Shown in pieces: positions 5,245-58,193 of a stretch of 64,000 bases of DNA. The translations under genes and the position numbers were made by a program. The DNA lies in IMG/VR virus record IMGVR_UViG_3300002835_000119, positions 12,727 to 76,726 of that record. The stretch is one strand, 5' to 3'. The stretch is from a virus. Its lineage: Duplodnaviria; Caudoviricetes. The notes beneath the pieces are model-generated. The model did no database searches. It was not told where the DNA came from and saw only the letters and a list, made by a program, of their open reading frames with translations. The number at the start of each line of letters is the position of its first letter. Position 1 is the first letter of the stretch.

Positions 5245-6729
5245 ATGATTTTAAGTGCTTGTATATTTGGGTATGGTCCTATAGGTAAAGCTGTAGTAGA
5301 CAAATTTACTTGTCTACCTGGCTACGGGAAAGACATAAGAATACACATAGTCTATGTAAAAAAGTTAAAAGACTTTCCAGAAGCTCAATTAAATAACCAA
5401 AACTTTTGGAAAATAAACAATAAATATTTCAATAATGAAAAATTAAGCATAACTATTGGTGACGACCACGAGTGGTTAAATTCAAGTGGATATATGGGGC
5501 ACGATGTTATTTTTGATTGTTCGGAGAAAGACGATGACTTTTCGCAAGAAATTAACGATCAACTTAATTTAAATAATAATTTTGTTTTATATAAATGTTC
5601 AAGCTTAGACTCTGTTGATGAGTTTATGGAGCCAATTTTAGATAGAATAACTAAACTCAGAAAATTAAAATTTAATGAAAAAATTAAAGAACAAATAGAC
5701 AGTTCGGTGTTTAGTGAAAAAAGTAACTACAAATTAACTTTGAATGCAAGAAAAACTTTTTATTCTGAGACAGAATACAACTCAAAAAAAATTATTGAAG
5801 ATGATCCAAAAAGAATATATGAAAATAATTCGAACGGGTTTAGATCAAAAAAAGAATTAGAAAAAACCCCCCTATTATTTGCTGGCTGCTCGGTAACATA
5901 CGGAGTGGGAGTCTCTATAGAAAACATTTGGGCGACTCAGGTGGCCAAACTTTTAAATTTAGATCATACAAATATAGGTAAGTCTGGTGCTTCTACTGGT
6001 CAAATAGTAAATTCTATTTTTAAATATGTAGAAACATATGGGAACCCGGAGTATCTTTTTTGTCTTTTCCCTGACTATAAAAGATTTTATGTGCCGGTAG
6101 ATGGTGTGTTTTATGCAGAAAAATTAAATAACAAAAATAAAGTTCCTACAAATATAGAAAAAGAAAGTAGTGAATCGAATAAAAAATTTTTTCAAACTGT
6201 ATATTTGGGAGTAGAAAAAGAAAAAAATAATAAATTAATTAAACTTCCATATGACTATAGAAAAGTTTTTTCCGATGATTTAGCAATATATGACGCAATG
6301 AAAAGCATTAGATATTTAGAGCAATACTGTAGGGCAGCGGACATAAAATTATTTTGGGCCACTTGGGATCCTGTATTTAACGGATTAGTTATAGACTCTC
6401 AGCTTGAGCCAGACACAAGATTTGAGAAATTTTTTAATTTATACGATCACAATTTTGACTATTCCAGAATTAAGCTATCAGAAAATAGTATTAAAGAAAT
6501 ATTTTTTGACAACTATGCTGATTTTGAGCTGTGCTTATCTAGTCACATTAATCCGGGGGTTGAATGCACCTGCGGAACTTTGTGCCATGCAGAAATTAAA
6601 AAAGAATTTCCTGATGAATATTTTGCAGGTACCGACTCTGCTCTTGGCCACCCCCACTTTGGGGCTCACTGGCACAGGCATGCTGCCGAAAGTTTTTATA
6701 ACGAATTTACTAGAGCAAAATCCCGGTAA
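5245..6729 (+). CDS. Rossmann-like N-terminus fused to SGNH-hydrolase-like domain
   Basis: IFGYGPIG at N-terminus; FAGCSVTYGVG, NIGKSGAS and C-terminal HFG..WH; very AT-rich. Confidence 0.6.
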   Translation: MILSACIFGYGPIGKAVVDKFTCLPGYGKDIRIHIVYVKKLKDFPEAQLNNQNFWKINNKYFNNEKLSITIGDDHEWLNSSGYMGHDVIFDCSEKDDDFSQEINDQLNLNNNFVLYKCSSLDSVDEFMEPILDRITKLRKLKFNEKIKEQIDSSVFSEKSNYKLTLNARKTFYSETEYNSKKIIEDDPKRIYENNSNGFRSKKELEKTPLLFAGCSVTYGVGVSIENIWATQVAKLLNLDHTNIGKSGASTGQIVNSIFKYVETYGNPEYLFCLFPDYKRFYVPVDGVFYAEKLNNKNKVPTNIEKESSESNKKFFQTVYLGVEKEKNNKLIKLPYDYRKVFSDDLAIYDAMKSIRYLEQYCRAADIKLFWATWDPVFNGLVIDSQLEPDTRFEKFFNLYDHNFDYSRIKLSENSIKEIFFDNYADFELCLSSHINPGVECTCGTLCHAEIKKEFPDEYFAGTDSALGHPHFGAHWHRHAAESFYNEFTRAKSR

Positions 6730-16162: not shown

Positions 16163-16200
16163 AATTAAAGTCCTTTCGGTACTTCAATTTTACTAGAAGG

Positions 16201-30687: not shown

Positions 30688-31410
30688 ATGGACCAATTAC
30701 TTAGATCTAAAGATCGCAAAGTTGCGAATTCGATTATGCCATCCGGCAAACAACCAAGGATCGCTAATACGTTCGGCCTGCCGGCGGGAGTCGAGTACTC
30801 ATGCCCGGGCGCTACTAGTATCTGCAGCAAGATCTGCTACGCCGGTAACCTCGAGAAGATCTACAAGGGCGTTAAAGAAAAGCTGGTCCACAATTGGAAC
30901 TTACTGAAGGACGCGGATCTCCAGACCATGGTCGGCCTGCTTGATGCAATGATTAATGAATTCGAAGCGGACTGCGAAAAGTGGGAATCCGAAAAACTAT
31001 TCCGCATTCACTGGGACGGAGATTTTTTCAACATGGATTACGTACGGGCCTGGCGTGAAGTGATCGAACGGCACGCGGATGTTCAGTTCTGGGTTTACAC
31101 GCGTACACACTATGCGGTGCCCGAATTGATCGGCCTGCCTAACCTGGGACTCTATTTCTCGACGGATGACGATAACCTGGAGCTAGCGGATGGGCTGAAG
31201 AAAACATACGGCGTGAAGCTAGCGTACCTGTCGAAAGATTTCGCGGCTGGCCAGGCTGTGATCAAGAGCATGACGGGACGGCCTGGAGCTAAGTGTCCGG
31301 AGAATAAAAAAGCGCTACCGTTGATATCTGGAGAAGGGTCCGCGTGCGTACGGTGTGAGCTGTGCATCTTCCAGAAGACGGACGTGGTCTTCAGCGCTAG
31401 CAAAAAGTAG
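30688..31410 (+). CDS. gp88-like radical-SAM-related Fe-S protein
   Basis: FGLPAG..SCPGAT..C...CYA, FRIHWDGDF, FWVYTR, C-terminal CP...C..C.LC. Confidence 0.8.
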   Translation: MDQLLRSKDRKVANSIMPSGKQPRIANTFGLPAGVEYSCPGATSICSKICYAGNLEKIYKGVKEKLVHNWNLLKDADLQTMVGLLDAMINEFEADCEKWESEKLFRIHWDGDFFNMDYVRAWREVIERHADVQFWVYTRTHYAVPELIGLPNLGLYFSTDDDNLELADGLKKTYGVKLAYLSKDFAAGQAVIKSMTGRPGAKCPENKKALPLISGEGSACVRCELCIFQKTDVVFSASKK

Positions 31411-31435
31411 AGTCTAATCAATGCACCAACGGTGA

Positions 31436-31753
31436 TTGTATTCTAGAAGGGTGCGATCACTAGAAGTACATTTATTCGAAACGGAGCGAGACGTTGATCT
31501 CGCGATCAAAAGTGGTACCGCGCTGCCGGAGCAGATCGCGAGTACTAAGTGCATAGACTGCAGCGACGCCGCCGGCTATGATCATGAAAATTTCCATCCA
31601 TTCATTTTGGTGATCGACGAAAATGATCAGGACTGGATTTTGTGTTGCGATTGCGCGGGACCCATTCTTAGTTATGTTGACGCATTCTTTCCTCCGGTGG
31701 TTCGGAGCCACTTTGCTCATGATCTGGATGACGACGATCTCGATCTTTTTTAG
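31436..31753 (+). CDS. small Cys-rich protein (start uncertain)
   Basis: CIDC...CCDC. Confidence 0.55.
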   Translation: MYSRRVRSLEVHLFETERDVDLAIKSGTALPEQIASTKCIDCSDAAGYDHENFHPFILVIDENDQDWILCCDCAGPILSYVDAFFPPVVRSHFAHDLDDDDLDLF

Positions 31754-31770
31754 CGTTATGAAATTGTTAT
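31754..31770 (+). promoter_or_regulatory. YGTTAY direct repeat, 11-bp period (first of seven copies)
   Basis: Also at 38880, 39720, 41334, 44104, 44711 and 45197, always upstream of a promoter. Confidence 0.75.
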
Positions 31771-31848
31771 ATAACTGATCCCGACACGCCTTGCGTTACT
31801 CGACCCTTTCCGATAAGCTCGGGTTTGTTCGAGAAACGAAAGGATAAA

Positions 31849-32472
31849 ATGACTACTCTCGCACCTGCCGCTGTCGTATCTACAACTCCCGAAGTTGTCG
31901 GCAAGGCAATTTATTTAGAAGTAATACCTGTATTGGACGCAGAAGGAAAACCAATTATTCCGTGGTATGGGGGTAAGGATAATGTGAAGCAAATAATTAT
32001 TTTCCCCCGAGGAAAAGACGCAACTGGCAAAAATGTTGAGCCATACATTTACGATAGGACTATCTCTAAGCACTATCCAAAAGCACAATGGAATCGCACT
32101 CAGATTCACCCAACCCCAAGTAGGACAGAGTTCGCCGCTAATGGTGAAACTAGCTATCGAGGACTTACACTCGAAGCACCAACTCCTGCCGAACTAGAAA
32201 CTTTGCCAGAGGAAGTCCAAAAGGAGTTCTACGCTAATGGGATCGAAATGCGGCTGTATCAAGAGCTAATGTATGAGAAATCCACGCACAATTCCGAAAC
32301 TGGAAACTATGATGTTGTCGCACTCCACGCTTGGAAAGTTGTTCGCAAGTTCGTAGTCGAAATTACAGACAAAGACCTATCAGACATTTACAATTACAAA
32401 ACTCCGCAGGCTGTAATTCGCAGAATAACAAAAGTTCGAGTATCGCTCGGACTGCCAGAAAAGTTAGTTTAG
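31849..32472 (+). CDS. hypothetical protein
   Basis: GAAAGGATAAA SD before ATG 31849. Confidence 0.8.
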   Translation: MTTLAPAAVVSTTPEVVGKAIYLEVIPVLDAEGKPIIPWYGGKDNVKQIIIFPRGKDATGKNVEPYIYDRTISKHYPKAQWNRTQIHPTPSRTEFAANGETSYRGLTLEAPTPAELETLPEEVQKEFYANGIEMRLYQELMYEKSTHNSETGNYDVVALHAWKVVRKFVVEITDKDLSDIYNYKTPQAVIRRITKVRVSLGLPEKLV

Positions 32473-32496
32473 AGTTAGTCAGGAAAGGATAAGAAA

Positions 32497-33564
32497 ATGA
32501 CTACAAAGGTAAGCGTTCCAAAAGAGTTCGCAACAACTGAAAACCCAGAGTGGGAAGCACTAAAATCATTAGTTTTGGAAGCTGGTGTCCAAAAAACACT
32601 AGCGACCCCAGAGCTAGACAAGCTACTACCTGTATCAGGCAGAGCAACCCTAAGAGCAACCCCAACTAAAAAGTCTGGTGGCACTACTGCTAAAGTAGAA
32701 TCAGCAGACGAAGTTGATGTTGTAATCGAGGAACAAGTTTTGGTAGAACAAATTAGCGTGGAGAACCTAATTGGTGACGAAGCGTATGAGCGACCAAATG
32801 GAGAGCTTTACTATGCTCGAAATTGGGAAGGTCACTCCGACATAGAAGTTCTACGCAAAGCACGCAAAAACAATTCCTATGTTCTACTTTATGGAAATCC
32901 TGGAACTGGTAAAACTGCCGCAGTCGAAGCCGCTTTCCCAGACGAACTTTACACAATTCTCGGTTCTGGTGATACAGAAGTTGCCGACCTAGTTGGTTCT
33001 TATGTTCAGACCCCTAGTGGCGGTTTCGAGTGGATTGACGGAAGTTTGACTAAAGCCGCAGATGAAGGCAAAGTTCTACTGATTGACGAAATTGGTTTGA
33101 TCGACCCAAAGGTTCTTTCGGTTGTCTATGGACTAATGGACGGCAGACGAGAGCTAGTAGTAACTGCTAACCCTGAGCGTGGCACTATCAAAGCCAAAGA
33201 AGGGTTTTATGTTGTCGCCGCAACTAATCCGAACGCCCCAGGAGTTCGACTAAGTGAAGCACTACTTTCCCGATTCTCGATTCAGGCAGAAATGACTACT
33301 GACTGGGCAAGAGCCAAAGCACTTGGAGTTCCGAACGCCGCAGTTGTCGCCGCCCAGAACTTGTCTAAGAAAATGGAAAATGGTGAAACTAGCTGGTCGC
33401 CGCAAATGCGAGAGCTACTAGAGTTCCGTAAAAACGCAGAAGTGTTTGGAACTATGTGGGCAGTTCGCAACTTGCTTGCCGCCGCACCTGAAATCGACAG
33501 ACCTATTGCCGCAGATGTTTTCGCTCGAGTATTCGGCGAAGCAGTCTTGCCCGCCAGAATCTAG
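32497..33564 (+). CDS. MoxR/CbbQ/CobS-type AAA+ ATPase
   Basis: GNPGTGKT, LLIDEI, AATNP, EALLSRF, SPQMREL. Confidence 0.92.
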   Translation: MTTKVSVPKEFATTENPEWEALKSLVLEAGVQKTLATPELDKLLPVSGRATLRATPTKKSGGTTAKVESADEVDVVIEEQVLVEQISVENLIGDEAYERPNGELYYARNWEGHSDIEVLRKARKNNSYVLLYGNPGTGKTAAVEAAFPDELYTILGSGDTEVADLVGSYVQTPSGGFEWIDGSLTKAADEGKVLLIDEIGLIDPKVLSVVYGLMDGRRELVVTANPERGTIKAKEGFYVVAATNPNAPGVRLSEALLSRFSIQAEMTTDWARAKALGVPNAAVVAAQNLSKKMENGETSWSPQMRELLEFRKNAEVFGTMWAVRNLLAAAPEIDRPIAADVFARVFGEAVLPARI

Positions 33565-33572
33565 GTGAGCTA

Positions 33573-35378
33573 ATGGCACACTACAAGCCAGAACGCAGAG
33601 CAACTACTCGCAAAAACGAAATGTTGCCAGAGTGGTATCGAGTATCCTCACAACTTGGTCAGCTAGTCAATGGTTGGTCAGGTCGAAGTGACTTGGCTGT
33701 TTATTGTGGAGAGAACGCCGCAGAGGGCGAAGCTATTGCGGCACTTTATCACGATTCAGCCGAAATCGAAGTCAATGTAACTAAGGCTTTCGGTTTCGCA
33801 ACGCCAGACCAATTAGGCAACTTGCTCGACAAGAATACGCACTACGACAACCCCAAAGCTATTGGAGTTATCTATCACGAAGCACTACACGCTCGACACT
33901 CGAACTGGGATAGAGAACTGCTTACCAAAGAGCTAGACGCAAGTGAATCGAGAGCATTTTTATTGCTCGAGGAAGTTCGTATCGAAGCTCGAGGAATTAT
34001 CGAAGTTCCAAAGAATAAATTGTTCTTGAGAGAATCAGCACTTGCTTTCGCACTAGAGGAAGTCAATGAAGCAACACTCCAAAACATTTCCCAAGTCTGG
34101 CAGTCAGGTATGCTCGCAGTTTTAGCTATGGGTAGGTTTGATGTTGGAATCTTGGAACTAAGTGATGTTCGACTAATCCACGCACGCTTGATCGAAAATC
34201 TTGGTCAGGAGTTGTTTGATAACCTACGCAAAATCTGGATTGAGTTTGCTGGACTAAAAGTTTCCCAAGTAGAGCGAGGTATGGAACTTGCTCGAGAGTG
34301 GGTAAAACTAATGAAGCAGGCAGACCCAGAGGGCGAGAAGCAGTTTGGAGAAGCGAAACCTGTCGAAGCTGGCGAAGCTGGTGAGAGTGAGCAGTCTGGT
34401 TCGCTGTCGGAGTTGCTAAGTGAAATGGCAGACCAAGTTGGTTTCGACAATGCGGAAAGTCTGGCAGACCAAAAGACACTCGAGGAGTGGGAACAAGAAG
34501 CTAAGTCGAGAAGTCAGACTGCTAAGAATCGTAATCTAAAGAAGCAGACTGCCCAGAAAATCTTTGATAAGCAAAATGACGCAAAAGGTTCTGGCTCGAA
34601 CTCCGAACTAAAGGAATCGAGAAACCCAACTCCGCAGGAGAGAGCCGCCGCAGTTACTATCGCCAAGATGTTAGAAAAGGCGAAGTATCGTGAGAGGTCA
34701 CTCCACGAAGTTCGCTCGACAATTCCGCAGGGCAGACTAAACGCTAGAGCCGCAGTCCAAAATGCGGCACTTGCGGCTCGAGGTTCTATCGAGAGAGTTC
34801 CTGCTTGGGATAGGAAAGTTCGCAAGCACACAGACGACCCAACACTACGGCTCGGAATTATGGTAGATGTTAGCGGTTCTATGTATAACGCTATGGAAGC
34901 TATGGCAACTACGGCGTGGGTAATGGGTGAAGCTGGTCGCCGAATCCAAGCCAAGACCGCTATGGTGTATTACGGCTCGGGTGTATTCCCTACACTCCGA
35001 GTTGGACAACGGCTCGACCAAGTTCGAGTATTCACCGCCGCAGACGGAACTGAGGAGTTTCAGGACGCATACTCCGCAATAGACGGAGAGCTTGGACTGA
35101 CTTATGGTGACGGCGTGCGTATGTTGGTAATTGTTTCAGACGGACAATACCGACCAAGCCAAGTCGAAGCAACACGCAAAGCACTAATCGAGTGTAAGCA
35201 AAACGGCGTGGCTGTCTTGTGGATTACGCCAAAGGGCTTGTGGGGATACACGGCTCGCCAGATAATCTCCGAAGCCAACTGGGGTATTCACCTAGACGGC
35301 TTGGAAGTATCAGAGATAGCGTTACAGGTTGGTAAAGCCGCCGCCGAAGCGTTAGGCAAGGTGAGCGTAGCCGCCTAA
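33573..35378 (+). CDS. CobT-like protein: HExxH region plus von Willebrand A domain
   Basis: YHEALH, LEEVRIE, DVSGSM (MIDAS), IVSDG. Confidence 0.88.
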   Translation: MAHYKPERRATTRKNEMLPEWYRVSSQLGQLVNGWSGRSDLAVYCGENAAEGEAIAALYHDSAEIEVNVTKAFGFATPDQLGNLLDKNTHYDNPKAIGVIYHEALHARHSNWDRELLTKELDASESRAFLLLEEVRIEARGIIEVPKNKLFLRESALAFALEEVNEATLQNISQVWQSGMLAVLAMGRFDVGILELSDVRLIHARLIENLGQELFDNLRKIWIEFAGLKVSQVERGMELAREWVKLMKQADPEGEKQFGEAKPVEAGEAGESEQSGSLSELLSEMADQVGFDNAESLADQKTLEEWEQEAKSRSQTAKNRNLKKQTAQKIFDKQNDAKGSGSNSELKESRNPTPQERAAAVTIAKMLEKAKYRERSLHEVRSTIPQGRLNARAAVQNAALAARGSIERVPAWDRKVRKHTDDPTLRLGIMVDVSGSMYNAMEAMATTAWVMGEAGRRIQAKTAMVYYGSGVFPTLRVGQRLDQVRVFTAADGTEEFQDAYSAIDGELGLTYGDGVRMLVIVSDGQYRPSQVEATRKALIECKQNGVAVLWITPKGLWGYTARQIISEANWGIHLDGLEVSEIALQVGKAAAEALGKVSVAA

Positions 35379-35393
35379 CCGCAACCGACAAGT

Positions 35394-35496
35394 TTCCGAG
35401 TGGGTATGTTTCTTATCCTTTCTGCCCACTCGGAACCCAACGGGTACCCACTGGATCAACTTCCTTCCTTTCTAATTTGAGGTCCGGTGGGTACTC
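35394..35496 (+). ncRNA. two hairpins with anti-Shine-Dalgarno loops (3' of the AAA/VWA operon)
   Basis: 13- and 16-bp stems; loops contain TTTCTTATCCTTTC and CTTCCTTCCTTTCT. Confidence 0.65.
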
Positions 35497-35547
35497 TCAT
35501 TTCTGCTGCAGAGCCGGAATATAATCCGCGGCGCTCGCGATCAGTAC

Positions 35548-35576
35548 TTGACTAATGGGGATCAATGCGCTAATCT
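35548..35576 (+). promoter_or_regulatory. sigmaA-type promoter with no downstream ORF
   Basis: TTGACT-17-TAATCT. Confidence 0.7.
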
Positions 35577-35581
35577 TTTTC

Positions 35582-35656
35582 TGTAGGGCAGAAGCCGGTG
35601 CGGCTCGCTGAAAAGAAGTGCGATTCTAGATCAAGAACTTAGTCCCCTACATTTTT
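35582..35656 (+). ncRNA. candidate 70-nt four-way-junction small RNA
   Basis: TGTAGGG/CCCTACA closing stem with three internal hairpins, own promoter, T-run. Confidence 0.5.
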
Positions 35657-35695
35657 AGATCCGGCCCGGCTTTTTCGACACGCCGCAAAAAAGAT

Positions 35696-35724
35696 TTGGA
35701 AAATGTCGGCCATCCTGCTACACT
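35696..35724 (+). promoter_or_regulatory. promoter with ATGTC spacer element
   Basis: TTGGAA-17-TACACT; CGACACGC at 35676. Confidence 0.7.
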
Positions 35725-35753
35725 TTTATCACCCAAAGGAAAGGATAAAAATT

Positions 35754-36272
35754 ATGGGTATGGATGTTTATGGTAAGAACCCTAAGTCGGAGATGGGCGA
35801 GTATTTCCGCCGCAACGTTTGGGGATGGCATCCCCTCTGGCAGTATGTGGAAGATACCCATCCAGAGATTGCGGAACTGGTCGAGTATGCTCACAGCAAC
35901 GATGGCGATGGTCTTGGCTCGGAAGACTCTAAGAAACTTGCCGAGTTACTTTTGGCAGACTATGAGTCTGGCGAGGCTTTTCGCTATGTCGAAGAACGCA
36001 ACAAGTATCTTTCGGAGTTGCCGCTTCTTGATTGCGAGTGGTGCGATGCTACTGGTATTCGAACTGATGAAGTTGGTATCAAAAATGGTTTCCCCGATAA
36101 AGAACTCTCTTTTGAAGTTCAGGCTATAACTGATAGAACTACTGGCTACTGCAATGGCTGTAATGGAGTTGGCAAGCGACAGCCCTGGGAAACCAATTAC
36201 TATCTTGAGCCAGATGATGTAAAAGAGTTCGCTCTCTTCCTAAAGGATTGTGGCGGCTTCGAAATTTGCTAA
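35754..36272 (+). CDS. conserved phage protein with DnaJ-like Zn-finger insert
   Basis: MGMDVYG..YFRRNVWGWHPLW..HSNDGDG..CxxC..CxxCxG..FLKDCGGFEIC; paralog at 46169. Confidence 0.8.
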   Translation: MGMDVYGKNPKSEMGEYFRRNVWGWHPLWQYVEDTHPEIAELVEYAHSNDGDGLGSEDSKKLAELLLADYESGEAFRYVEERNKYLSELPLLDCEWCDATGIRTDEVGIKNGFPDKELSFEVQAITDRTTGYCNGCNGVGKRQPWETNYYLEPDDVKEFALFLKDCGGFEIC

Positions 36273-36289
36273 ACCAACCCTTCGGGGAA

Positions 36290-36317
36290 ACACCTGGGCA
36301 GGTGTCTAAACTGCCCA
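36290..36317 (+). other. compact H-type pseudoknot motif
   Basis: ACACC/GGTGT stem; loop TGGGCA pairs with downstream TGCCCA; similar element at 41257-41287. Confidence 0.55.
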
Positions 36318-36360
36318 ATTTTTTATGCCGCAAAATGGATCGCGGCACGCCGAAAATAAT

Positions 36361-36389
36361 TTGCAAAATGTCCGGCCCCGTGCTAACGT
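36361..36389 (+). promoter_or_regulatory. promoter with ATGTC spacer element driving a non-coding unit
   Basis: TTGCAA-17-TAACGT. Confidence 0.7.
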
Positions 36390-36395
36390 GGATCC

Positions 36396-36492
36396 ACTAG
36401 GAAAGGTCATTCCTTCCCTTCCTAGTTTCTTGTGTGGTTGGTAGAGAGCCCCGCCGGCTTTTATTTGTTTTCACTGGCGGGGTTTTCTTTTT
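36396..36492 (+). ncRNA. stand-alone sRNA with anti-SD/anti-AUG loop
   Basis: ACTAGGAA/TTCCTAGT stem with loop GGTCATTCCTTCCC, then terminator; no + strand ORF. Confidence 0.65.
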
Positions 36493-36544
36493 GACACGGC
36501 TTGCTTTTGATCGATCACTGTGTTAGTGTTATGGCAAGGAAAGG

Positions 36545-36976
36545 ATGATCATGAAAAGTAAATTGTTTGATGTAAATGTTTATGTGATCGACGGCGTGGT
36601 CAATGTGATCTTTTATAAATTGATCTACTCCGACGCACTGAACGGATCTGTTGTTGGCGCGGACACTAGTGAAAGTGGCGAGGCAGGCAGGCTAGCGATC
36701 AACATTCATTCGCAAGACTACGACGAGATCGAAGCAATCCGCTACGCGCTGGATTGCGATAGCTATGACGATCGACCGCTGAACGAGTGGGAGGAGTTTG
36801 ACGAGTGGAATACGAGCGAGTGGTTTATGCAAGGGGATACTCCAAAAATTTTCCGCGATTTTGCGAACGGCCTGCAAGAATACGAGCCAGAAATTGGGCA
36901 CGCCTGGGAACCATTCACCGAGCACGGTGAGACGACGCGCACGGTGTTCCGTTGCAGGTGTGGAGCGTCAGCATGA
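36545..36976 (+). CDS. hypothetical acidic protein
   Basis: GGAAAGGAT SD. Confidence 0.7.
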   Translation: MIMKSKLFDVNVYVIDGVVNVIFYKLIYSDALNGSVVGADTSESGEAGRLAINIHSQDYDEIEAIRYALDCDSYDDRPLNEWEEFDEWNTSEWFMQGDTPKIFRDFANGLQEYEPEIGHAWEPFTEHGETTRTVFRCRCGASA

Positions 36977-37263
36977 GAATACCGACACGGATACTAAACG
37001 CGGGACGCTGGATCTTGCCTGGACTAACGGATCGAGGTGAGATCTCAGCTTGTCGCAGGTGTGGTAATCAGGTGATCTTTGACGGACACTTAGTTTCGCC
37101 CGGATACGCGGCGTACTGCCCCTGGCACGACGAAGACCTTTACAGAACTGAGATTGTAGATTACGACTTTACAAGTTGGAGAAAATCCATAAAAATTTTT
37201 GCGGCGGAGATTGACTTTCGCTCAAAAATAGCTATACTAAAAATGCGACTAAGGAAAGGATAA
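36973..37263 (+). CDS. hypothetical protein with CxxC/CxxH
   Basis: ATGA coupling; CRRC...CPWH. Confidence 0.55.
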   Translation: MRIPTRILNAGRWILPGLTDRGEISACRRCGNQVIFDGHLVSPGYAAYCPWHDEDLYRTEIVDYDFTSWRKSIKIFAAEIDFRSKIAILKMRLRKG

Positions 37264-37268
37264 AAACT

Positions 37269-37628
37269 ATGGGCGCACGAACAACTTGGGAAATTAGAAC
37301 CTATGAGGGTTCCCCATCTATTTACCTATACTCACACTGGGGCGGAGAGTCTAAGTGGGAGCAAACTATTCGAGCTATGAGAATTTGCGAGCCGCGCTGG
37401 GGTGACCCTAGCTATGGAGCGCGAATTTTTATCAGCACCATAATCGGAAATCGGTGGGAGAGTGAAACTGGTTTTGGAATTACTGCTGGTGCAGCTAACG
37501 ATAATCCATTCGAGGAAGAATACTTACCAGTGATTATAGATTTTGGTAGGCAGGTAGTCGAGACGCCTTACTCAATTCATAATTTTTCTGATTTTAGTGG
37601 AGAAAAAGTAAGTTTTCTGCTAACCTAA
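37269..37628 (+). CDS. conserved hypothetical phage protein
   Basis: MGAR...IYLYSHWGG...RWGDPSYGARI; GAAAGGATA SD. Confidence 0.8.
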   Translation: MGARTTWEIRTYEGSPSIYLYSHWGGESKWEQTIRAMRICEPRWGDPSYGARIFISTIIGNRWESETGFGITAGAANDNPFEEEYLPVIIDFGRQVVETPYSIHNFSDFSGEKVSFLLT

Positions 37629-37630
37629 AC

Positions 37631-37703
37631 TTACGCGGGTCGAGCGCCCCCCCAATCTGCTCTCCGCGTAACGAGCCCCTGGTTTCCCCCAAACTAGGGG
37701 CTC
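37631..37703 (+). other. two hairpins with C-rich loops
   Basis: TTACGCGG/CCGCGTAA and GAGCCCCT/AGGGGCTC stems. Confidence 0.6.
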
Positions 37704-37839
37704 AACCATTTATGGTGGAGTTTTGCTGATCAGCATTTTTTAGAAAATACGATCAGTTGCGCCGCGGCGACACGCGGAAAAAATAATTTTGTTTTTTGTC
37801 GCCGGTAGCCTTATACTTTAGTTAGAAAGGATACACACT

Positions 37840-38226
37840 ATGAACTATGAAACCTGGAGCAACACTTTCACCCCTATCGAGAATGTTCTGAATAGCAACG
37901 CTCCTTATGGTGGCACTATGTATGAAACTTATGGCAGCGAGTTGGATTTTGTGAAAGCTACAGACCCACAAAAAATTTGGACGCTCAGAGAAGAAGATGG
38001 TTCGCTATCTATCACTGCCGGTTATGGCTGGGTAAATCGACTTGGTTATTTCATCACTGCTAATTCTTGGACCAACACCAACGACAGAATTATTCTCTCG
38101 GAAGAAGTCCAATGCGACTGCTACAAAGAAGATGGCTATCTTGATAAGTTTGGTGGTATCCAAGATGGCGACCCCGATTGCGATAAGTGCGAGGGTTATG
38201 GGCGATACGAAAACTATCTGGGCTAA
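37840..38226 (+). CDS. hypothetical protein
   Basis: GAAAGGATA SD; own promoter TTGTTT-17-TATACT. Confidence 0.8.
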   Translation: MNYETWSNTFTPIENVLNSNAPYGGTMYETYGSELDFVKATDPQKIWTLREEDGSLSITAGYGWVNRLGYFITANSWTNTNDRIILSEEVQCDCYKEDGYLDKFGGIQDGDPDCDKCEGYGRYENYLG

Positions 38227-38316
38227 AAACTAAATTCCGGCGACACGCTGGAAAATCCAATTTGACAATATCCAAAAAAACGACTATCATCAAACTATCA
38301 ACAGGAAAGGATAAAA

Positions 38317-38502
38317 ATGACAATTCAAGAAATTATCGAGGCTATCAAGGAGCGAGCTAACGAGGCCGAAGAGTGTATGCGAATTTCCGAGGCTAATGGC
38401 TACGAGGAATACGATTATCACGAGGGGCGGTTCGAAGCCTATTCAGTTCTAGCCACTTGGCTTGAGGCACAATTTTTTGCTGGTTCGCCAATTTCTAAGT
38501 AG
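38317..38502 (+). CDS. hypothetical protein
   Basis: TTGACA promoter and GAAAGGATA SD. Confidence 0.75.
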   Translation: MTIQEIIEAIKERANEAEECMRISEANGYEEYDYHEGRFEAYSVLATWLEAQFFAGSPISK

Positions 38503-38511
38503 GATAAGACT

Positions 38512-38805
38512 ATGAAATTTCACGAAGCACTTGGTGCGGTAATCCGAGAAGAAAGACTTGGGCAGGAAGTATCTTTGCGCGAAATCGCGAAAGCTGGTTT
38601 TGTTTCTATGGGTCACTTATCAGACGTTGAGAATGGACGCAAAGAGGGTTCTTCTGCTTTTATCGAAGCGGTTGCTAAAGCACTTGGTGTTCCAACTTAT
38701 GAACTTGTTATCGAGGCAGGCTATCGAATGGCTGAAATCAAAATTCCCGATACCTATGAAGATTTTATTGACGACCATTCGCCCATTCATACGACAGCTC
38801 ACTAA
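38512..38805 (+). CDS. XRE-family HTH regulator, ClgR-like
   Basis: EALGAVIREER...SLREIA...VSMGHLSDVENGRKEGSS. Confidence 0.8.
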   Translation: MKFHEALGAVIREERLGQEVSLREIAKAGFVSMGHLSDVENGRKEGSSAFIEAVAKALGVPTYELVIEAGYRMAEIKIPDTYEDFIDDHSPIHTTAH

Positions 38806-38817
38806 GAGCTGAAACCC

Positions 38818-38848
38818 AAAGCCCCGGTGGTTCGCTACCGGGGTTTTG
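38818..38848 (+). terminator. intrinsic terminator
   Basis: GCCCCGGTGG-TTCG-CTACCGGGGT plus T-run. Confidence 0.85.
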
Positions 38849-38969
38849 CATTTAGGATCCTTTTTTGTATTGATCGCTCCGTTACCAACTTGTTATAAAA
38901 AACTTATGGCGACACGCTTGCGCAAAATTCGAATATCGATAAGCTTTGATTGTCGAAGAAAGGACAAAA

Positions 38970-39194
38970 ATGCCAAAGTTTTACGTAGAAATGCGAATTG
39001 ATTTCGCAGGAGAAATTGAAGCAGAAAACGCCGAAGAAGCGGAGACGCTTGCTTGGACAAGTTGGGGCGATACAATGGACAGCCCAATTCAGTACGACAA
39101 CGTTTATTCAATCGACGTCGAAGAAATGGAAGAAGAAATTGACGAAGATGAAATCGAATTTGAAGAAATCAAAGAAGAAATGGAAGTGAAGTAA
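38970..39194 (+). CDS. very acidic small protein
   Basis: GAAAGGA SD; Glu/Asp-rich. Confidence 0.75.
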   Translation: MPKFYVEMRIDFAGEIEAENAEEAETLAWTSWGDTMDSPIQYDNVYSIDVEEMEEEIDEDEIEFEEIKEEMEVK

Positions 39195-39196
39195 TT

Positions 39197-39670
39197 ATGG
39201 GTTTGGATATGTATCTTTACGCTCGCCAATATCTGACTGGATATGAGTGGGACAAAAATGGCGATATGCAAAAGCTAACCAACGTTGTTGGCAATTTGGA
39301 TTTTGCGGTTTCAGAACTTGAGAGGCCAAGTGTTTCTATCATGTTGCCGGTTGGCTACTGGAGAAAAGCAAATCAAATTCACAACTGGTTTGTAAAAAAT
39401 GTCCAAAATGGCGAGGACGACTGCAAAGAATATTCGGTGGAGCGAGAAGAGCTACAGGACTTGCTCAACGTTTGTGAAAAGGTTTTGGACGACCCTGACT
39501 TGGCGGAAGAGCTGTTGCCAACGTCTAGTGGGTTTTTCTTTGGTTCCACAGACTATGACGAATACTATGAGCAAGAGTTGCGAGAAACAGTTATCTTGCT
39601 GACAAAGCTATTGAGCGATACCCGACTAAATTCCGGCAACGTGGATTTTGTTTATACGTCATCTTGGTAG
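39197..39670 (+). CDS. conserved phage protein
   Basis: MGLDMYLY...YWRKANQIHNWF...LLPTSSGFFFG..YDEYY...YTSSW. Confidence 0.85.
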   Translation: MGLDMYLYARQYLTGYEWDKNGDMQKLTNVVGNLDFAVSELERPSVSIMLPVGYWRKANQIHNWFVKNVQNGEDDCKEYSVEREELQDLLNVCEKVLDDPDLAEELLPTSSGFFFGSTDYDEYYEQELRETVILLTKLLSDTRLNSGNVDFVYTSSW

Positions 39671-39801
39671 TGAGTAGTGGCAGTGCCGGTTCGCCGGCGC
39701 TCGCCACGATCCTAAATTCTGTTATAAAGCTGTTACCAAAAATTGCTACAAAATGTCACCCCTAAGAGTTAGTATCTAAGTAACCCAAAAGAAGGAAGGT
39801 T

Positions 39802-40014
39802 ATGGAAACACAAAAGTTGGTTAGCGCTCTCATTGGTCTAATGGAGAGTAAGAAAGAAGTCCTGAAGGACCTAAACATTCTGTATGGCTCTCTCTCTGAC
39901 TTGATAGTAAGTCCTGAAGAGCAACTGCAAAGTATCAAAGAACTAACAAGAGCCGACGCTCAATTCGAAATGGCTCAAGAAATTTTGGAAATTCTAAAAG
40001 AGGCGGTTCTCTAA
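39802..40014 (+). CDS. hypothetical protein
   Basis: GAAGGAAGG SD. Confidence 0.7.
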   Translation: METQKLVSALIGLMESKKEVLKDLNILYGSLSDLIVSPEEQLQSIKELTRADAQFEMAQEILEILKEAVL

Positions 40015-40289
40015 TGGGCCGTTCTTATGCAGAGGGTATCGCCGCGGCTAGTATTCCACTGGAAGAGCAGATCCGGATCCACCTAAGAACTAATCACTAT
40101 CCACCGGTTCCGGAAGTTATGGTTCCTGTTTGTATCGCGGCTCTAAATGCTGCCGCGTGCGACGAGTGGGACAAACTAATTCCATTGCCAGAGGGAGTTG
40201 GCTACAGAGGACTAAACGCGGCTCCGGTTAGCGCGATAGTGGAGCAACATCACTTAGACCCCTGGCTTGACAACGAAGAAGAATACTAG
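40014..40289 (+). CDS. hypothetical phage protein
   Basis: HLRTNHYPPVP...IVEQHHLDPW; TAATG coupling. Confidence 0.75.
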   Translation: MGRSYAEGIAAASIPLEEQIRIHLRTNHYPPVPEVMVPVCIAALNAAACDEWDKLIPLPEGVGYRGLNAAPVSAIVEQHHLDPWLDNEEEY

Positions 40290-40315
40290 TAGTGTTTGAG
40301 AAGAAAGGATAGAAA

Positions 40316-40582
40316 ATGAATATCTCAAAGTTAGAAAAAATTGCCGAGGGAAAATACAAAGTCTATTCGGCAAGCTGTTCGGAGTGTGGTGATATCGCGG
40401 CTATCGAAGTTGATAGCAAATGGGTATTCGATATGCACCAAGGCGGAAGAGTTTCTGATCTAATGCCGTTCCCGAAATACTCAATGGCATTACGCGAAAA
40501 GTTTATTTCTGGTTTGTGCGAGCCTTGCTGGAATAAAGTTATGATGGGCGCAGAATTAGTTGCGGAAAACCTAAATAGCTGA
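40316..40582 (+). CDS. small Zn-binding protein
   Basis: CSEC...REKFISGLCEPCW; consensus SD. Confidence 0.75.
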   Translation: MNISKLEKIAEGKYKVYSASCSECGDIAAIEVDSKWVFDMHQGGRVSDLMPFPKYSMALREKFISGLCEPCWNKVMMGAELVAENLNS

Positions 40583-40848
40583 TAACCTTAGAGAAACAAG
40601 AAAGGAAAAAAATGTTGTCTAAGTCTTGGCACCTTGAGCAGGATGGTATTCAGTTGCCGGTTGTGTTTGTAACTATGCGTGAAGCAATCGAATACGCCGA
40701 GAAAAACCTAAAGGGCGAATACCTAGTTGTAAAAGAGCATCACCTAGAGGGCATAACAAAGCGCCCAAGATTAGTGGGCCAAAAGTAATACGCTTGACAA
40801 AAGCGAAAGTACCTAGTAGTTTATAGATAGCGAAGAGAAAGGATAGAA

Positions 40849-41193
40849 ATGAAAAAATTCGCTGTTATCAAAGTTGATGGTGTTGTTGAGCTACACGAAG
40901 TATCTGCAGAAGCAGAGGGCGACTTCCTGAGCGAAGCAGTGGGCGGTTGGTTCCAGTCTGTACCACTTAGGGCAGAGCTGAAAGATTACTGGCTATGGTG
41001 CCACGAAGAGGGAAAAATTATCGGCCTAGCAATGAACTCAGTTGCTACGGCACTATGGATACTTTCCTACGGTCCTAGCGACATAATTCACGGCAACATA
41101 GTTATCACTGGCGGTATTGATGAAGAGGGAGAAACTCTCGGACTTACTAACGACCAAATTGCTAAGCTTGAGGAAATACTGGAGCTGGTATAG
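40849..41193 (+). CDS. DUF3846-like protein
   Basis: AVGGWFQ...HEEGK..GL.MN..AT...DIIHGNIVITG. Confidence 0.8.
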   Translation: MKKFAVIKVDGVVELHEVSAEAEGDFLSEAVGGWFQSVPLRAELKDYWLWCHEEGKIIGLAMNSVATALWILSYGPSDIIHGNIVITGGIDEEGETLGLTNDQIAKLEEILELV

Positions 41194-41215
41194 ACTCAAA
41201 GTCTGGGGGAGGTTT

Positions 41216-41287
41216 GCGGTGAGCTATCCTTTCTTCTAATCAAATAAATTCACCGCCAGTCCTGAGCATGACTGACTAAAAGGCTCA
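41216..41287 (+). ncRNA. anti-SD hairpin followed by pseudoknot
   Basis: GCGGTGA/TCACCGC stem with CTATCCTTTCTTCT in the loop; CAGTC-CTGAGCAT-GACTG...GCTCA. Confidence 0.6.
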
Positions 41288-41413
41288 ATTTTTTATTCGC
41301 GACGCTCGCCGGATCATTAAGGATCGCCGGCAATGTTATAAAGCCGTTATAAATAAATACTCGAAAATGTCGCTGGTCTTTGCTAGGTTTCTATTACCAG
41401 AAGAAAGGTAGCT

Positions 41414-41695
41414 ATGAAGAAGCTAGAGCTGATTGAGCTGTTCAATTATGAAATGGACGAAAAACTAATTATCTTGGACAAACTTAACCGAGAAGCTGAA
41501 ATCCGTAAAAAAGATGTCGAGGAAATCCACACTCGCTTTCATAGTGGCGAAATCAGGACTTTAGAAGAAGCAGAAGAACTGGCAAGAGAAGCTGACCAAC
41601 ACATAGCTCGAATGGAAGAAATCCAAGAAAAAGTCCGTCTGATGATTGTGGAAATTATGTTCGACATTAGGGCAATTCACGAAGCGAAAGATTAG
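41414..41695 (+). CDS. coiled-coil hypothetical protein
   Basis: GAAAGG SD, own promoter. Confidence 0.7.
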   Translation: MKKLELIELFNYEMDEKLIILDKLNREAEIRKKDVEEIHTRFHSGEIRTLEEAEELAREADQHIARMEEIQEKVRLMIVEIMFDIRAIHEAKD

Positions 41696-55574: not shown

Positions 55575-55646
55575 TCCTCTCTAGCTCAATGGCAGAGCAA
55601 CGAGCTGTTAACTCGTAGGTTCGTGGTTCGAGTCCACGGAGGGGAG
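55575..55646 (+). tRNA. tRNA-Asn (GTT)
   Basis: Cloverleaf: TCCTCTC/GAGGGGA acceptor, TAGCTCAATGGCAGAGC D-arm, ACGAG-CTGTTAA-CTCGT, GGTTCGAGTCC; CCA not encoded. Confidence 0.97.
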
Positions 55647-55655
55647 CGGAGGACT

Positions 55656-56415: not shown

Positions 56416-56745
56416 GGGCCTGACTGGTTTCGACGGTGAGTCTGAAATTGGTGAAGCGTGCAGAGAATCCTGTAACTCTTGAATCGGGAACAAAAAATAT
56501 AAACGGCACACAGTCCGCATTCGCACTAGCTGCTTAGCAGTGCACCTCCGGCAGCAGTAGTTCTAACTGAGCACCGCAGGTTTTAAATAAATAGAACAAC
56601 CAAAGTCTCTCCCACAAGACTTTAAAGAGTGGTAACGACTTAGATCTTTTGGCAGATCGATATCTAAGCCGTATTGGATCTGCCTACGCACGTAGAAGAA
56701 CAATGAATTGCTTATCGGACGCGGGTTCAATTCCCGCCAGGTCCA
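56416..56745 (+). ncRNA. ssrA: tmRNA; tag peptide (A)GTQSAFALAA
   Basis: 5' GGGCCTGACTGGTTTCGAC and 3' GCGGGTTCAATTCCCGCCAGGTCCA; G3-U alanine identity pair; ATAAAC-GGC...TTC GCA CTA GCT GCT TAG. Confidence 0.96.
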
Positions 56746-56768
56746 CAATTGATGTACACTAGTACCCT

Positions 56769-58193
56769 ATGGGTAAAAGCATTATGGAACAGCTCGCTCT
56801 CCTTCCAGAGGAAGAGCGTCTAGAAATCCTCGCTGGGATGGACCCCGATTCCTTGGTTTGGGATTGGTCAGTCTGGGCGCGTCCAGAGCAGAAAGCCCCT
56901 GAAGGCGATTGGAACGTCTGGCTGGTTATGGCTGGTCGTGGTTTTGGTAAGACCCGTCTTGCATCCGAGTGGGTCCGCGAACAAGCTAAGTACACCAAAG
57001 ATGGCCAGCGTCGCTTTGCCCTCGCTGCTCGTACTGCAGCTGACGTTCGTGACGTTATTGTTGAAGGTGAATCTGGAATTATTGCTGTTTCTCCTCCGTC
57101 AGAGAAGCCACACTACGAGCCTTCGAAGCGACGCCTAACCTGGCCAAACGGAAATACTGCCACTCTTTTTACTGCTGATGAGCCCGACTCGCTTCGTGGT
57201 CCTCAGTTCACCCACGCATGGGGCGATGAGATTGCAGCTTGGCGTCAGACTCCAGATGCCGCAGGTATGACCGCGTTTGACAACCTTCGCGTTGGTACGC
57301 GTCTTGGCAAGAACCCGCAGATTGTTTGTACCACCACGCCAAAGCGCGTACCGCTACTTTACAAACTAATTGAAGAGTCACGCACTGATCGTCCTGGTGG
57401 CTCAAAAGTTGTAATCACTAAGGGATCTACGCTGGACAATGCTGGAAACCTTTCGCAGGCTTACTTAGACACAATTACTGGCGTTTACGAGGGAACTACC
57501 CTTGCTCGCCAAGAGCTTTATGGAGAGATGCTCGACGACATCGAAGGAGCACTTTGGAATGAAGAGATGGTTGAATCAGCTAGAGAAATGGTTTACCCTC
57601 CAAGCACTCCGCTTCGTATTATCGGCGTGGACCCTTCGGTTGCTGAGAATCCCCGCGACGAATGCGGTATTGTTGTCTGCGCTGCGACTGCAGAACATGA
57701 CCTCTATAAGCGCAATGCTTGGGTTCTTGAAGACGCTACAGTTCATGGTTCCCCAGACACCTGGGCCCGTAGGGTTGTGGAAATGGCTCGTAAGTGGGGT
57801 TGTCCCGTCGTTGCCGAGGTTAATCAGGGTGGCGCTCTCGTACGAAATGCCATCAATGCGATTGACCCAACTGTTAAGGTCCTCGAAGTACACTCTAAAT
57901 ACGGTAAAGCCCTCAGAGCAGAGCCAGTAGTTTTGTCTTATGAGCAAAAAAGAGTCCATCACGTCGGCTATTTGCAAGATCTAGAGTCTCAGATGTATTC
58001 TTGGATCCCGGAAAGCGCTTCTAAGTCACCTGACCGCGTCGACGCACTAGTTCACGCCCTCACTGCGCTTCTAATTAAGCCACCACCTGGCTTCTCGGGT
58101 GGAAAAATTCGTGCAAAGAGCTTCGCTGATCGAAAACTAGGCGTAACTAACCCAAATACTCGCCCTCTAGGCAAAATTTTTAGGGTAAGATAG
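56769..58193 (+). CDS. terminase large subunit
   Basis: AGRGFGKT Walker A, LRGPQF..AWGDE, TTTP, IIGVDP, EVNQGG, SPDRVDA. Confidence 0.96.
   Translation: MGKSIMEQLALLPEEERLEILAGMDPDSLVWDWSVWARPEQKAPEGDWNVWLVMAGRGFGKTRLASEWVREQAKYTKDGQRRFALAARTAADVRDVIVEGESGIIAVSPPSEKPHYEPSKRRLTWPNGNTATLFTADEPDSLRGPQFTHAWGDEIAAWRQTPDAAGMTAFDNLRVGTRLGKNPQIVCTTTPKRVPLLYKLIEESRTDRPGGSKVVITKGSTLDNAGNLSQAYLDTITGVYEGTTLARQELYGEMLDDIEGALWNEEMVESAREMVYPPSTPLRIIGVDPSVAENPRDECGIVVCAATAEHDLYKRNAWVLEDATVHGSPDTWARRVVEMARKWGCPVVAEVNQGGALVRNAINAIDPTVKVLEVHSKYGKALRAEPVVLSYEQKRVHHVGYLQDLESQMYSWIPESASKSPDRVDALVHALTALLIKPPPGFSGGKIRAKSFADRKLGVTNPNTRPLGKIFRVR

Follow-up and report, generated by a model that had tools for sequence, protein, structure and literature searches.

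Hairpin loops in an uncultured lake phage and dozens of its relatives are, on the evidence of co-variation, true anti-RBS (ribosome-binding site) sequences under selection, because loop and RBS have changed together across many phage lineages. We consider it somewhat probable (roughly 55%) that these hairpins act in cis, each on an RBS of the mRNA that carries it. The joint changes of loop and RBS indicate that the tail of the message probably folds back and throttles its own translation. Across relatives, the hairpin always lies 10–110 nt past the stop codon of the gene whose RBS its loop matches, as would be expected if each message controlled its own gene. This suggests a different form of regulation from that proposed in an earlier sequence-only reading of this DNA, in which multiple trans-acting small RNAs (sRNAs) shut off a whole class of mRNAs.

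Anti-RBS loops in the window

The window is the whole 64,000-nt stretch of DNA that was analyzed; the phage genome is 76.7 kb. All genes and hairpins described below are on its + strand. The AAA_5 (MoxR/dynein-related) ATPase gene (32497–33564) encodes 355 amino acids (Pfam AAA_5, E = 1e-21; PHROG ATPase, E = 8e-55) and is preceded by GAAAGGATAAGAAA, which together with the ATG occupies 32483–32499. Eight nucleotides past its stop, behind TAGGTGAG, begins a gene (33573–35378) for a vWA-like protein of 601 amino acids. This protein has only a weak Pfam match, to VWA_CoxE, and matched nothing in PHROG, NCBIfam, or the PDB sequences. It contains an HExxH motif and a MIDAS-like DxSGS motif, both of which are invariant (H102, E103, and H106; D432, S434, G435, and S436) in 12 relatives.

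Two hairpins follow the AAA–vWA gene pair. Hairpin 1 (35394–35435) is formed by a 13-bp stem (35394–35406 and 35423–35435) and a 16-nt loop (35407–35422) in which the anti-RBS word TTTCTTATCCTTTC (35409–35422) begins 31 nt past the vWA-like stop. The word is an exact 14-nt complement of positions 32483–32496, which immediately precede the ATG of the ATPase gene and constitute the proposed target; no other complement in the genome is as long. The AAA RBS also ranks first in predicted duplex energy among 121 candidate starts in the genome (−17.8 kcal/mol; runner-up, −14.9 kcal/mol). Pairing of 14 nt within a 16-nt loop would be sterically demanding unless the stem opens, which counts against the cis reading. 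Hairpin 1 is found in three relatives (L040, L031, and L028), whose stems differ in sequence yet still pair. In another, L010, the loop is the same and the AAA RBS is altered (GAAAGGATAAAAAA), which leaves a match of about 11 nt as judged by eye; perfect complementarity is thus not maintained everywhere.

Hairpin 2 (35442–35507) comprises a 16-bp stem (35442–35457 and 35481–35496), a 23-nt loop (35458–35480; CUUCCUUCCUUUCU), and a U-rich tail. The U-tract UCUCAUUUCU follows hairpin 2 directly, hairpin 1 has none, and hairpin 2 with its tail probably marks the end of the AAA–vWA message. Loop 2 had been read as complementary to a Shine-Dalgarno (SD) sequence. It is indeed anti-SD-like, but no complement longer than 10 nt occurs in the genome, and no target stands out among the 121 candidate starts, of which the AAA RBS ranks fifth (−15.6 kcal/mol). 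The equivalent loop in L040 and L031 carries TTATCCTTTCT. Folded jointly, hairpins 1 and 2 are strong (−49.2 kcal/mol, z = −6.18; none of 200 shuffles was as good), whereas hairpin 3, described below, is weak by folding energy (z = 0.15) though conserved in L040.

Hairpin 3 (41216–41256) has an 8-bp stem (41216–41223 and 41249–41256) and a 25-nt loop (41224–41248) with CTATCCTTTCTTCT at 41224–41237. This word is the exact 14-nt complement of 40299–40312, part of the RBS and ATG (AGAAGAAAGGATAG, 40299–40318) of gene 40316–40582, one of the string of genes that precedes the hairpin directly. The predicted duplex is the best of 121 starts (−24.2 kcal/mol; runner-up, −19.5 kcal/mol). Shorter complements of 11–13 nt lie at 40836, 41766, 42834, and 43682. 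The first of these, 11 nt long, falls in the RBS and ATG (40836–40851) of a DUF3846 gene (40849–41193; Pfam E = 2.3e-15) that ends just before hairpin 3; the match in the loop begins 31 nt past its stop. No U-tract directly follows hairpin 3 itself. A terminator-like hairpin (TGAGC…GCTCA) with a T-run at 41263–41294, read from the sequence, would close the DUF3846 transcription unit. The L040 homologue of hairpin 3 has the same loop core and two compensatory stem changes (GCGGTGA/TCACCGC to GCAGCGA/TCGCTGC), and the terminator-like element that follows is kept (TGAGCA…TGCTCA plus T-run). Loop and DUF3846 RBS have both changed in L040 and still match over 13 nt.

The coordinates and complementarities quoted in the sequence-only reading were all correct, including both perfect 14-nt matches and the near-matches around hairpin 3. 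Its observation of four anti-SD hairpins holds for three. The fourth, at 36396–36492 (+ strand), combines an orphan promoter-like site, a hairpin, and a terminator; we excluded it from the family because base pairing with the hairpin's SD-like 5′ arm takes up most of its pyrimidine tract, no complement of at least 10 nt exists anywhere in the genome, and the unit, present in L009, is cleanly absent from the close relative L010. A minus-strand ORF at this place is frameshifted in L009.

Co-variation of loop and RBS in relatives

In a first set of 18 loci with the vWA-like gene, hairpins lie right after the vWA-like stop in 17. Addition of 80 further viral loci gave 95 flanks in the combined sets, which were reduced to 62 non-redundant flanks, 58 of them with an assignable vWA start. 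Across these 58 loci the hairpin is placed in the 120 nt past the stop and the gene's own RBS about 1.8 kb upstream. We measured the longest exact complement between each 120-nt flank and its own RBS and used the 3306 cross pairs as the comparison. Own pairs average 9.24 nt and cross pairs 6.19 nt. The own match reaches at least 8 nt in 45 of 58 loci and at least 10 nt in 27 of 58, compared with at least 10 nt in 161 of the 3306 cross pairs; it is 7 nt or shorter in 13 of 58 loci, and L048/L145 have no hairpin. None of 20,000 permutations attained the own mean, a figure that overstates independence because related lineages inherit loops and RBSs by descent. A safer independent count is 17, the number of groups without any common 8-mer into which the 34 distinct matched words fall. 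Lineage-specific words include TGACGGAAGG, TGGAAGGA, CGAAAGGACGAA, CAAAGGACAAACA, GAAAGGAACGGAA, CTTTTAGAAAGGG, and AAGGATAAGAAA.

The matches are specific for one gene. When all candidate RBSs of a locus are compared, the own vWA RBS is best in 23 loci and tied for best in 14 (37 of 57), and it outscores the neighboring AAA RBS in 51 of 56, a comparison that is approximate because the AAA start codons were taken from alignments often starting past residue 15. The window is atypical: its vWA RBS differs (TAGGTGAG) and loop 1 matches the AAA RBS instead, as in only 3 of 56 loci, the window included. For 34 of the 58 loci, no other 120-nt segment attains the length of the own match. In the minimum free energy (MFE) fold, 83% of the matched segment is unpaired, compared with 45% of the whole flank. 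Where the own match is at least 8 nt long (45 loci), it begins 10–109 nt past the stop, on the coding strand. Stems co-vary as well, with compensatory changes in 11 of 28 predicted pairs of the ten-member complex type. Stem covariation around a conserved loop core, the pattern to which the sequence-only reading had looked, is seen in L040 at 41.2 kb.

A cis-acting model and its alternatives

In the cis model, a hairpin shortly after the stop codon (in the window, of the AAA–vWA pair and of the DUF3846 gene) would display an unpaired loop sequence that is the reverse complement of the SD and spacer with which the same message begins. After transcription of the tail, the loop would pair with an RBS located 0.9–2.9 kb upstream in the window or about 1.8 kb upstream in the relatives. 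The loop and the 30S subunit would then compete for the RBS, further initiations would become fewer, and the message might also be marked for decay. As a result, the protein yield per transcript of the gene or operon would be capped. The model builds on exact complementarity, placement in unpaired loops, a fixed post-stop position, and loop–RBS co-variation, all of which we observed. It supposes that both ends reside on one transcript, that they would pair in vivo, and that the effect would be repression rather than activation.

The same complementarity and co-variation would arise if the tail acted on other copies of its own message. Cut off or left over and protected by its hairpins, it would persist as a stable 3′-derived small RNA, and the operon would repress itself as this RNA accumulates. 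Small RNAs derived from 3′ UTRs are an established class, and two very stable hairpins, the second terminator-like, would shield such a fragment. We nevertheless find this trans feedback rather unlikely. An RNA acting in trans need not sit directly past its target's stop in every lineage, and many of the relatives' hairpins lie between cistrons, lack a U-tract, and are no more than about 40 nt from the gene that follows. In addition, we saw no processing site and no promoter. No AAAATGTC-type phage promoter precedes the hairpins; a scan with the promoter consensus was itself at background (13 compared with 12.2 expected).

In the window phage alone, trans action or a wider reach is possible because the RBSs are uniform and each loop matches about 13 of them. 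All 19 GAAAGGA sites on the + strand are RBSs. When both strands are counted, the pattern TATCCTTTC occurs 14 times compared with 0.92 expected (0 of 100 shuffles reach 14), namely at 12 + strand RBSs and 2 loops, and the 4 + strand occurrences of TCCTTTC are one true minus-strand RBS (16171) and the three hairpin loops, which have this core in common. Loop 1 and the 41.2-kb loop are each complementary to about 13 RBSs over at least 10 nt. The GAAAGGA sites, the shared TCCTTTC core, and the many complements favor the original proposal of a phage sRNA family that shuts off all GAAAGGA-led translation in trans, silencing early cassette genes of the phage itself and perhaps mRNAs of the host while leaderless genes are spared. 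The comparison with relatives makes this proposal quite improbable: their loops track the private RBS of the gene ending just upstream rather than the phage's common RBS. For example, the loop of the L126–L147 group (CCTTCCGTCA) exactly matches the vWA RBS (TGACGGAAGG), whereas the AAA RBS is ACGACGAAAGGA. Moreover, the 35.4-kb and 41.2-kb hairpins have no visible promoter of their own, and the sole promoter-bearing unit is the one at 36.4 kb that lacks a target and is missing from L010. One may also imagine, as a doubtful elaboration, that in the window clade the cis autoregulator gave rise to an RNA-only switch from early to late translation. Cassette genes would have been homogenized to one private tag (GAAAGGATA(A/G)AAA, present at 12 window sites) that the hairpin tails mirror. 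Tails that outlive their messages would serve as a protein-free timer: as AAA–vWA and DUF3846 messages accumulate, tails would titrate all tag-bearing RBSs, and SD-led early translation would give way to leaderless genes.

Two further explanations were considered. Most loops contain YCCTT(T/C)C and resemble the anti-SD tail of 16S rRNA, and they could be decoys of the 16S 3′ end that soak up a factor or nuclease recognizing that tail; MazF-mt3, a toxin that cleaves at UCCUU, is an example of such an activity. This is highly improbable, since the spacer and upstream bases that the loops mirror in their own RBS are specific to each lineage and unrelated to 16S rRNA (CAAAGGACAAACA, CTTTTAGAAAGGG, AGAGACAGG, and AAGAATAGAA) and the co-variation extends outside the SD core. 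It is extremely unlikely that the hairpins are plain terminators or 3′ stabilizers, or that the loops are minus-strand RBSs of small antisense genes, with incidental complementarity, an alternative already raised in the sequence-only reading. Hairpin 2 does resemble a terminator, as does the element that follows hairpin 3, and a minus-strand SD with a start codon, sought 4–12 nt past the SD, occurs in 35 of 62 flanks. However, the resulting ORFs are inconsistent (6–95 codons), in the window neither loop 1 nor the 41.2-kb loop has a minus-strand start codon behind its SD, many relatives' hairpins stand within operons without a U-tract, and loops co-vary with their own RBS to a degree far above chance.

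Relation to known RNA regulators

Two bacterial cases are among the closest parallels to the cis model. In the icaR mRNA of Staphylococcus aureus, a pyrimidine anti-SD motif past the stop pairs with the transcript's own SD, blocking initiation and creating an RNase III substrate (PMC3868564). The phage motifs are alike in lying past the stop, on the coding strand, and in complementing the SD region of what is probably their own message. They differ in being placed in a hairpin loop 10–110 nt past the stop, in often covering SD plus spacer (8–15 nt), and in belonging to a phage operon, sometimes intercistronically, with co-variation across dozens of lineages. In Bacillus subtilis, an aSD-like 8-mer located hundreds of nucleotides downstream is reported to base-pair with the RBS, which inhibits initiation and hastens decay, and natural genes are depleted of such sequences (Gill et al. 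2025, PMC12697547). The phage aSD-like words, by contrast, are positively kept, in one fixed place, and matched to a private RBS.

Control of an upstream cistron by a downstream or distant RNA element also has precedents in phages and plasmids, including lambda sib retroregulation of int, fold-back inhibition of hok mRNA, and long-range RBS masking in MS2 and Qbeta. Lambda sib does not pair with an RBS but works by way of RNase III and 3′ decay, and the MS2/Qbeta partners lie within the coding sequence of an RNA genome. To our knowledge, none of these is a post-stop hairpin loop that mirrors an RBS. The two ends of the B. subtilis hbs message reportedly interact through its 5′ and 3′ UTRs, linking stability to translation; the phage hairpins would share such an end-to-end interaction, and organism and logic differ.

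C/U-rich hairpin loops that pair with SD regions are known from CcsR/cuckoo, AbcR, RsaE, RNAIII, and the actinobacterial 6C RNA, which, unlike the hairpins of the cis model, are transcribed independently and act in trans on many targets. An Rfam scan of the window at gathering thresholds matched only tmRNA and tRNA, and scans of window positions 35300–36600 and of L022 positions 5300–6700 gave no relevant match, 6C included, at E values up to 10. The complex phage relatives do resemble 6C RNA in carrying six or seven consecutive C in each of two loops.

Loops complementary to ribosome-binding sites in the window

The window (bases 12727–76726 of a single 76.7-kb virus contig; 45% G+C) contains a run of mostly small genes between 31.8 and 45.6 kb, all on the plus strand and using one very uniform ribosome-binding site (RBS). 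GAAAGGA occurs 19 times on the plus strand, directly 5′ of a start codon in 19 of 19 cases. The complement of this RBS core, TCCTTTC, occurs four times on the same strand; the copy at 16171 serves a minus-strand gene as a genuine RBS, and the remaining three, at 35416, 35466, and 41227, are hairpin loops. For the longer word TATCCTTTC, the two strands together yield 14 matches (0.92 expected), which comprise 12 RBSs and 2 loops.

Two of the loops belong to tandem hairpins (35394–35496; −49.2 kcal/mol, z = −6.18) that follow the stop codon of a vWA-like gene of 601 amino acids (33573–35378), itself directly 3′ of an AAA_5 ATPase gene (32497–33564). The third belongs to a hairpin after a DUF3846 gene (41216–41256), the folding energy of which is weak (z = 0.15). 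Genome-wide, the longest complement of loop 1 (35407–35422) spans 14 nt at 32483–32496, and the 41.2-kb loop has a 14-nt complement at 40299–40312. Among 121 candidate plus-strand starts, the top duplex of loop 1 is with the AAA ATPase gene (−17.8 kcal/mol; runner-up −14.9) and that of the 41.2-kb loop is with gene 40316 (−24.2 kcal/mol; runner-up −19.5); both partners lie upstream within the same co-directional gene run. Loop 2 (35458–35480) has no outstanding partner by duplex energy among these starts. The sequence-only reading had described at least four anti-RBS hairpins and detailed four, and the loop and RBS sequences that it quoted were located exactly where it placed them. Three of the four bear out its description; the hairpin of the fourth, a unit with a promoter-like site and a terminator (36396–36492), has no complement of at least 10 nt anywhere in the genome. 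A promoter-like site with a long hairpin at 35578–35682 folded no better than shuffles (z = −0.19) and was dropped.

Co-variation of loop and RBS among related loci

A search of GenBank phage DNA with window positions 32400–38400 revealed no close relative; the single match, 175 bp in length, was to the freshwater Actinomycetia phage DSL-LC01. Between the elements lies a gene for a 172-amino acid protein (35754–36272) that has invariant Cys pairs and recovered 563 proteins at E ≤ 0.001, and that matched no Pfam or PHROG family. Both 35.4-kb hairpins are nearly unchanged in two related loci, L009 (99% identity in this protein) and L010 (85%), and viral relatives of the protein at ~50% identity were too distant for flank comparison. 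Loci holding the 601-amino acid gene were mapped by tblastn, and the DNA 3′ of the stop codon was then read; hairpins with pyrimidine-rich loops follow the stop in 17 of 18 loci. A pattern scan added 6 viral loci and an alignment-based scan 80. An alignment query was required, as a scan of viral contigs with the single 601-amino acid protein returned nothing; the vWA-like protein had no sequence match in PDB, NCBIfam, or PHROGs. L144 (stop codon not inside the locus) and L113 (flank too short) were set aside. The 95 flanks, each the 120 nt after the vWA-like stop, reduced to 62 that were non-redundant. The vWA start could be assigned in 58 of these, which form the basis of the co-variation, structure, and specificity counts; L028, L025, L003, and L001, in which it was not assignable, stand outside them.

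The vWA start was assigned for each non-redundant locus and the upstream 28 nt were compared with the flank. Lineage by lineage, the loop reads as the vWA gene's own RBS and spacer in reverse complement: RBS TGACGGAAGG is accompanied by loop CCTTCCGTCA, TGGAAGGA by TCCTTCCA, CGAAAGGACGAA by TTCGTCCTTTCG, CAAAGGACAAACA by TGTTTGTCCTTTG, GAAAGGAACGGAA by TTCCGTTCCTTTC, CTTTTAGAAAGGG by CCCTTTCTAAAAG, and AAGGATAAGAAA by TTTCTTATCCTT. The longest exact complement between a flank and the RBS of the same locus averages 9.24 nt (n = 58), reaching at least 8 nt in 45/58 and at least 10 nt in 27/58, whereas flanks paired with the RBSs of other loci average 6.19 nt (161 of 3306 pairs reach 10 nt). The own mean was reached in 0 of 20,000 permutations, a figure that overstates independence because related lineages inherit both partners. 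A safer count is that of the matched words, of which 34 are distinct and fall into 17 groups that share no common 8-mer. In the minimum free energy fold, 83% of the matched segment is unpaired, compared with 45% of the whole flank. The own match is not equaled by any other 120-nt stretch of the locus in 34 of 58 cases. When all candidate RBSs of a locus were ranked, that of vWA was strictly best in 23 of 57 and tied-best in 14 (one further locus, with fewer than four other candidate RBSs, was left out). The own match is 7 nt or shorter in 13 of 58 loci, which is a weak point. In L162 and L166 the assigned vWA start lies ~13 nt after TATAAT without a Shine-Dalgarno (SD) sequence, which may reflect either a leaderless gene or a wrong assignment; the CCTTCCGTCA loop of these loci matches a different RBS in the same locus over 10–11 nt.

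The vWA RBS is a better match than the neighboring AAA RBS in 51 of 56 loci; three loci, the window among them, are exceptions in this comparison. In the window, 8 nt separate the AAA stop from the start of the vWA-like gene, which is preceded by TAGGTGAG and probably translated in coupling with AAA; the RBS that loop 1 mirrors is that of AAA, the first gene of the pair. In the nearest distinct relatives, L040 and L031, the loop mirrors the vWA RBS (12 nt each). A weak point is L010, in which the AAA RBS has drifted and the loop is unchanged. L040 retains the hairpin 3′ of the DUF3846 gene, its stem carrying two compensatory changes, and the altered loop forms a 13-nt match with the altered DUF3846 RBS. 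Judged from these sequences, it is a second site with the same logic as the AAA-vWA hairpin.

Two architectures were recognized. The simple type (window, L040, L031, and L028) consists of two hairpins with stems that differ wholly in sequence while pairing is kept; this conservation is based on separate folds, as a MAFFT alignment of the five simple-type elements lacked structural coherence. The complex type is built from an outer helix, a conserved internal motif, and an apical loop rich in C; a terminator-like hairpin comes next and carries another C-rich loop. For ten members, RNAalifold predicted 28 pairs, of which 11 show compensatory changes; misalignment made it miss the outer helix that is visible by eye. 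Each of the two loops of the complex type mirrors one half of the RBS, the two halves being adjacent: in L013, within the RBS sequence …TGAAAGGGAAGCAaATG, TGAAAGGG is mirrored by loop 1 and GGGAAGCA by loop 2. In the first complex hairpin of L021, L013, L019, L025, L016, and L089–L094, the invariant internal words GGTTGAGCGAAAG and ACTAGTTCCC flank a variable apical stem and may constitute a tertiary motif or protein site in addition to the anti-RBS loop.

Candidate mechanism and relation to known systems

The best explanation, to which we assign a probability of about 0.55 on comparative grounds, is that the hairpins are anti-RBS tails acting in cis. The message would fold back once its tail is transcribed, allowing the tail loop to pair with the RBS, compete with the 30S subunit, and cap further initiation. 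Cis action is favored by the gene-specific match and by the fixed position of the element, immediately 3′ of the stop of the gene that it would control, and fold-back within one message is the most economical reading. Weak points of this model include loop 2, which has no target, and the limited steric room that a 16-nt loop offers for pairing over 14 nt. Our second choice, also compatible with these data, is gene-specific feedback in trans, which would be exerted by a tail fragment that persists as a stable RNA. The sequence-only reading was correct that the loops mirror RBSs; it went on to propose a shut-off of GAAAGGA-led translation in trans, which is not what the family shows, its pattern being one of gene-specific matches; in the window's clade, with its uniform RBSs, such a shut-off may occur. 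The loops are unlikely to be decoys for the 16S tail, because the bases that they track, in the spacer and upstream, have no relation to 16S rRNA. Reading the hairpins as minus-strand gene starts was not supported at the window loops or in the relatives' flanks. Among RNA-library runs with 25–40% of words, four gave short Logan contigs lacking strand, ends, or levels, with DNA carry-over possible; one such contig covers 35263–36106 and another 40783–41513, and the contigs carry no weight either way on transcripts.

To our knowledge, pairing between the tail of a bacterial message and its own RBS is known for very few genes. No Rfam family matched the hairpin elements in scans of the window and a relative, E-value scans against Rfam did not support membership in 6C RNA, and word searches of the open-access literature found no published description of the element. 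The class itself, 3′ tail-SD pairing, is already known. In S. aureus icaR, the 3′UTR pairs with the SD (PMC3868564); a 2025 preprint shows for B. subtilis that distal anti-SD-like 8-mers pair with the RBS from downstream and that natural genes are depleted of them, which suggests that such pairing sequences are usually selected against (PMC12697547). Compared with these cases, the phage elements are new in their display of the match in a hairpin loop, their location after the stop and often between cistrons, a match that reaches into the spacer, the phage setting, and the depth of natural co-variation. Across no fewer than 17 independent rewritings of the sequence, the phage family has kept the predicted pairing in the same position, which provides natural evidence that mRNA contacts over 1–3 kb are functional and selectable. 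A post-stop hairpin with an RBS-mirroring loop is a compact, portable design that could cap protein yield per transcript, and may explain how these phages set the dose of the paired AAA ATPase and vWA proteins.

Neighboring elements

The 36.4-kb unit is stable (z = −4.74), chiefly owing to its terminator, and most of its pyrimidine tract pairs with a 5′ arm that resembles an SD. Both the window and L009 carry a ~170-bp unit (36340–36495) made up of a promoter copy, the SD-like leader hairpin, and a strong terminator, with no ORF; L010 lacks it entirely through a clean indel, with ~25 unrelated bases in its place. From this layout, the unit could be a cassette without a gene or could specify a small RNA.

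Scanning 31400–41600 for consensus promoters and terminators gave background numbers (13 vs 12.2 and 16 vs 10.7 expected, respectively). A promoter family at 35700, 36365, 39750, 41364, and 47479 carries the spacer word AAAATGTC between a TTGnAA-like −35 and a TAnnnT −10, each copy directly 5′ of a cassette gene; in L011–L019 and L021–L024, the lineage-specific oriented words TAGTTATTTTTTCTG or GTATCCACTTTTTTAT precede many cassette promoters. Next to gene 56769–58193, the phage also encodes a tRNA-Asn(GTT) (55575–55647) and a tmRNA (56416–56748) with the tag peptide GTQSAFALAA. A terminator design that recurs across relatives, ACACCTGAGCA-like followed by CTAAACTGCTCA and a T-run, is found in the window at 36285–36330 and 41260–41295 and in L011–L025 downstream of the 172-amino acid gene; its stems co-vary, that of the window being TGGGCA/TGCCCA.
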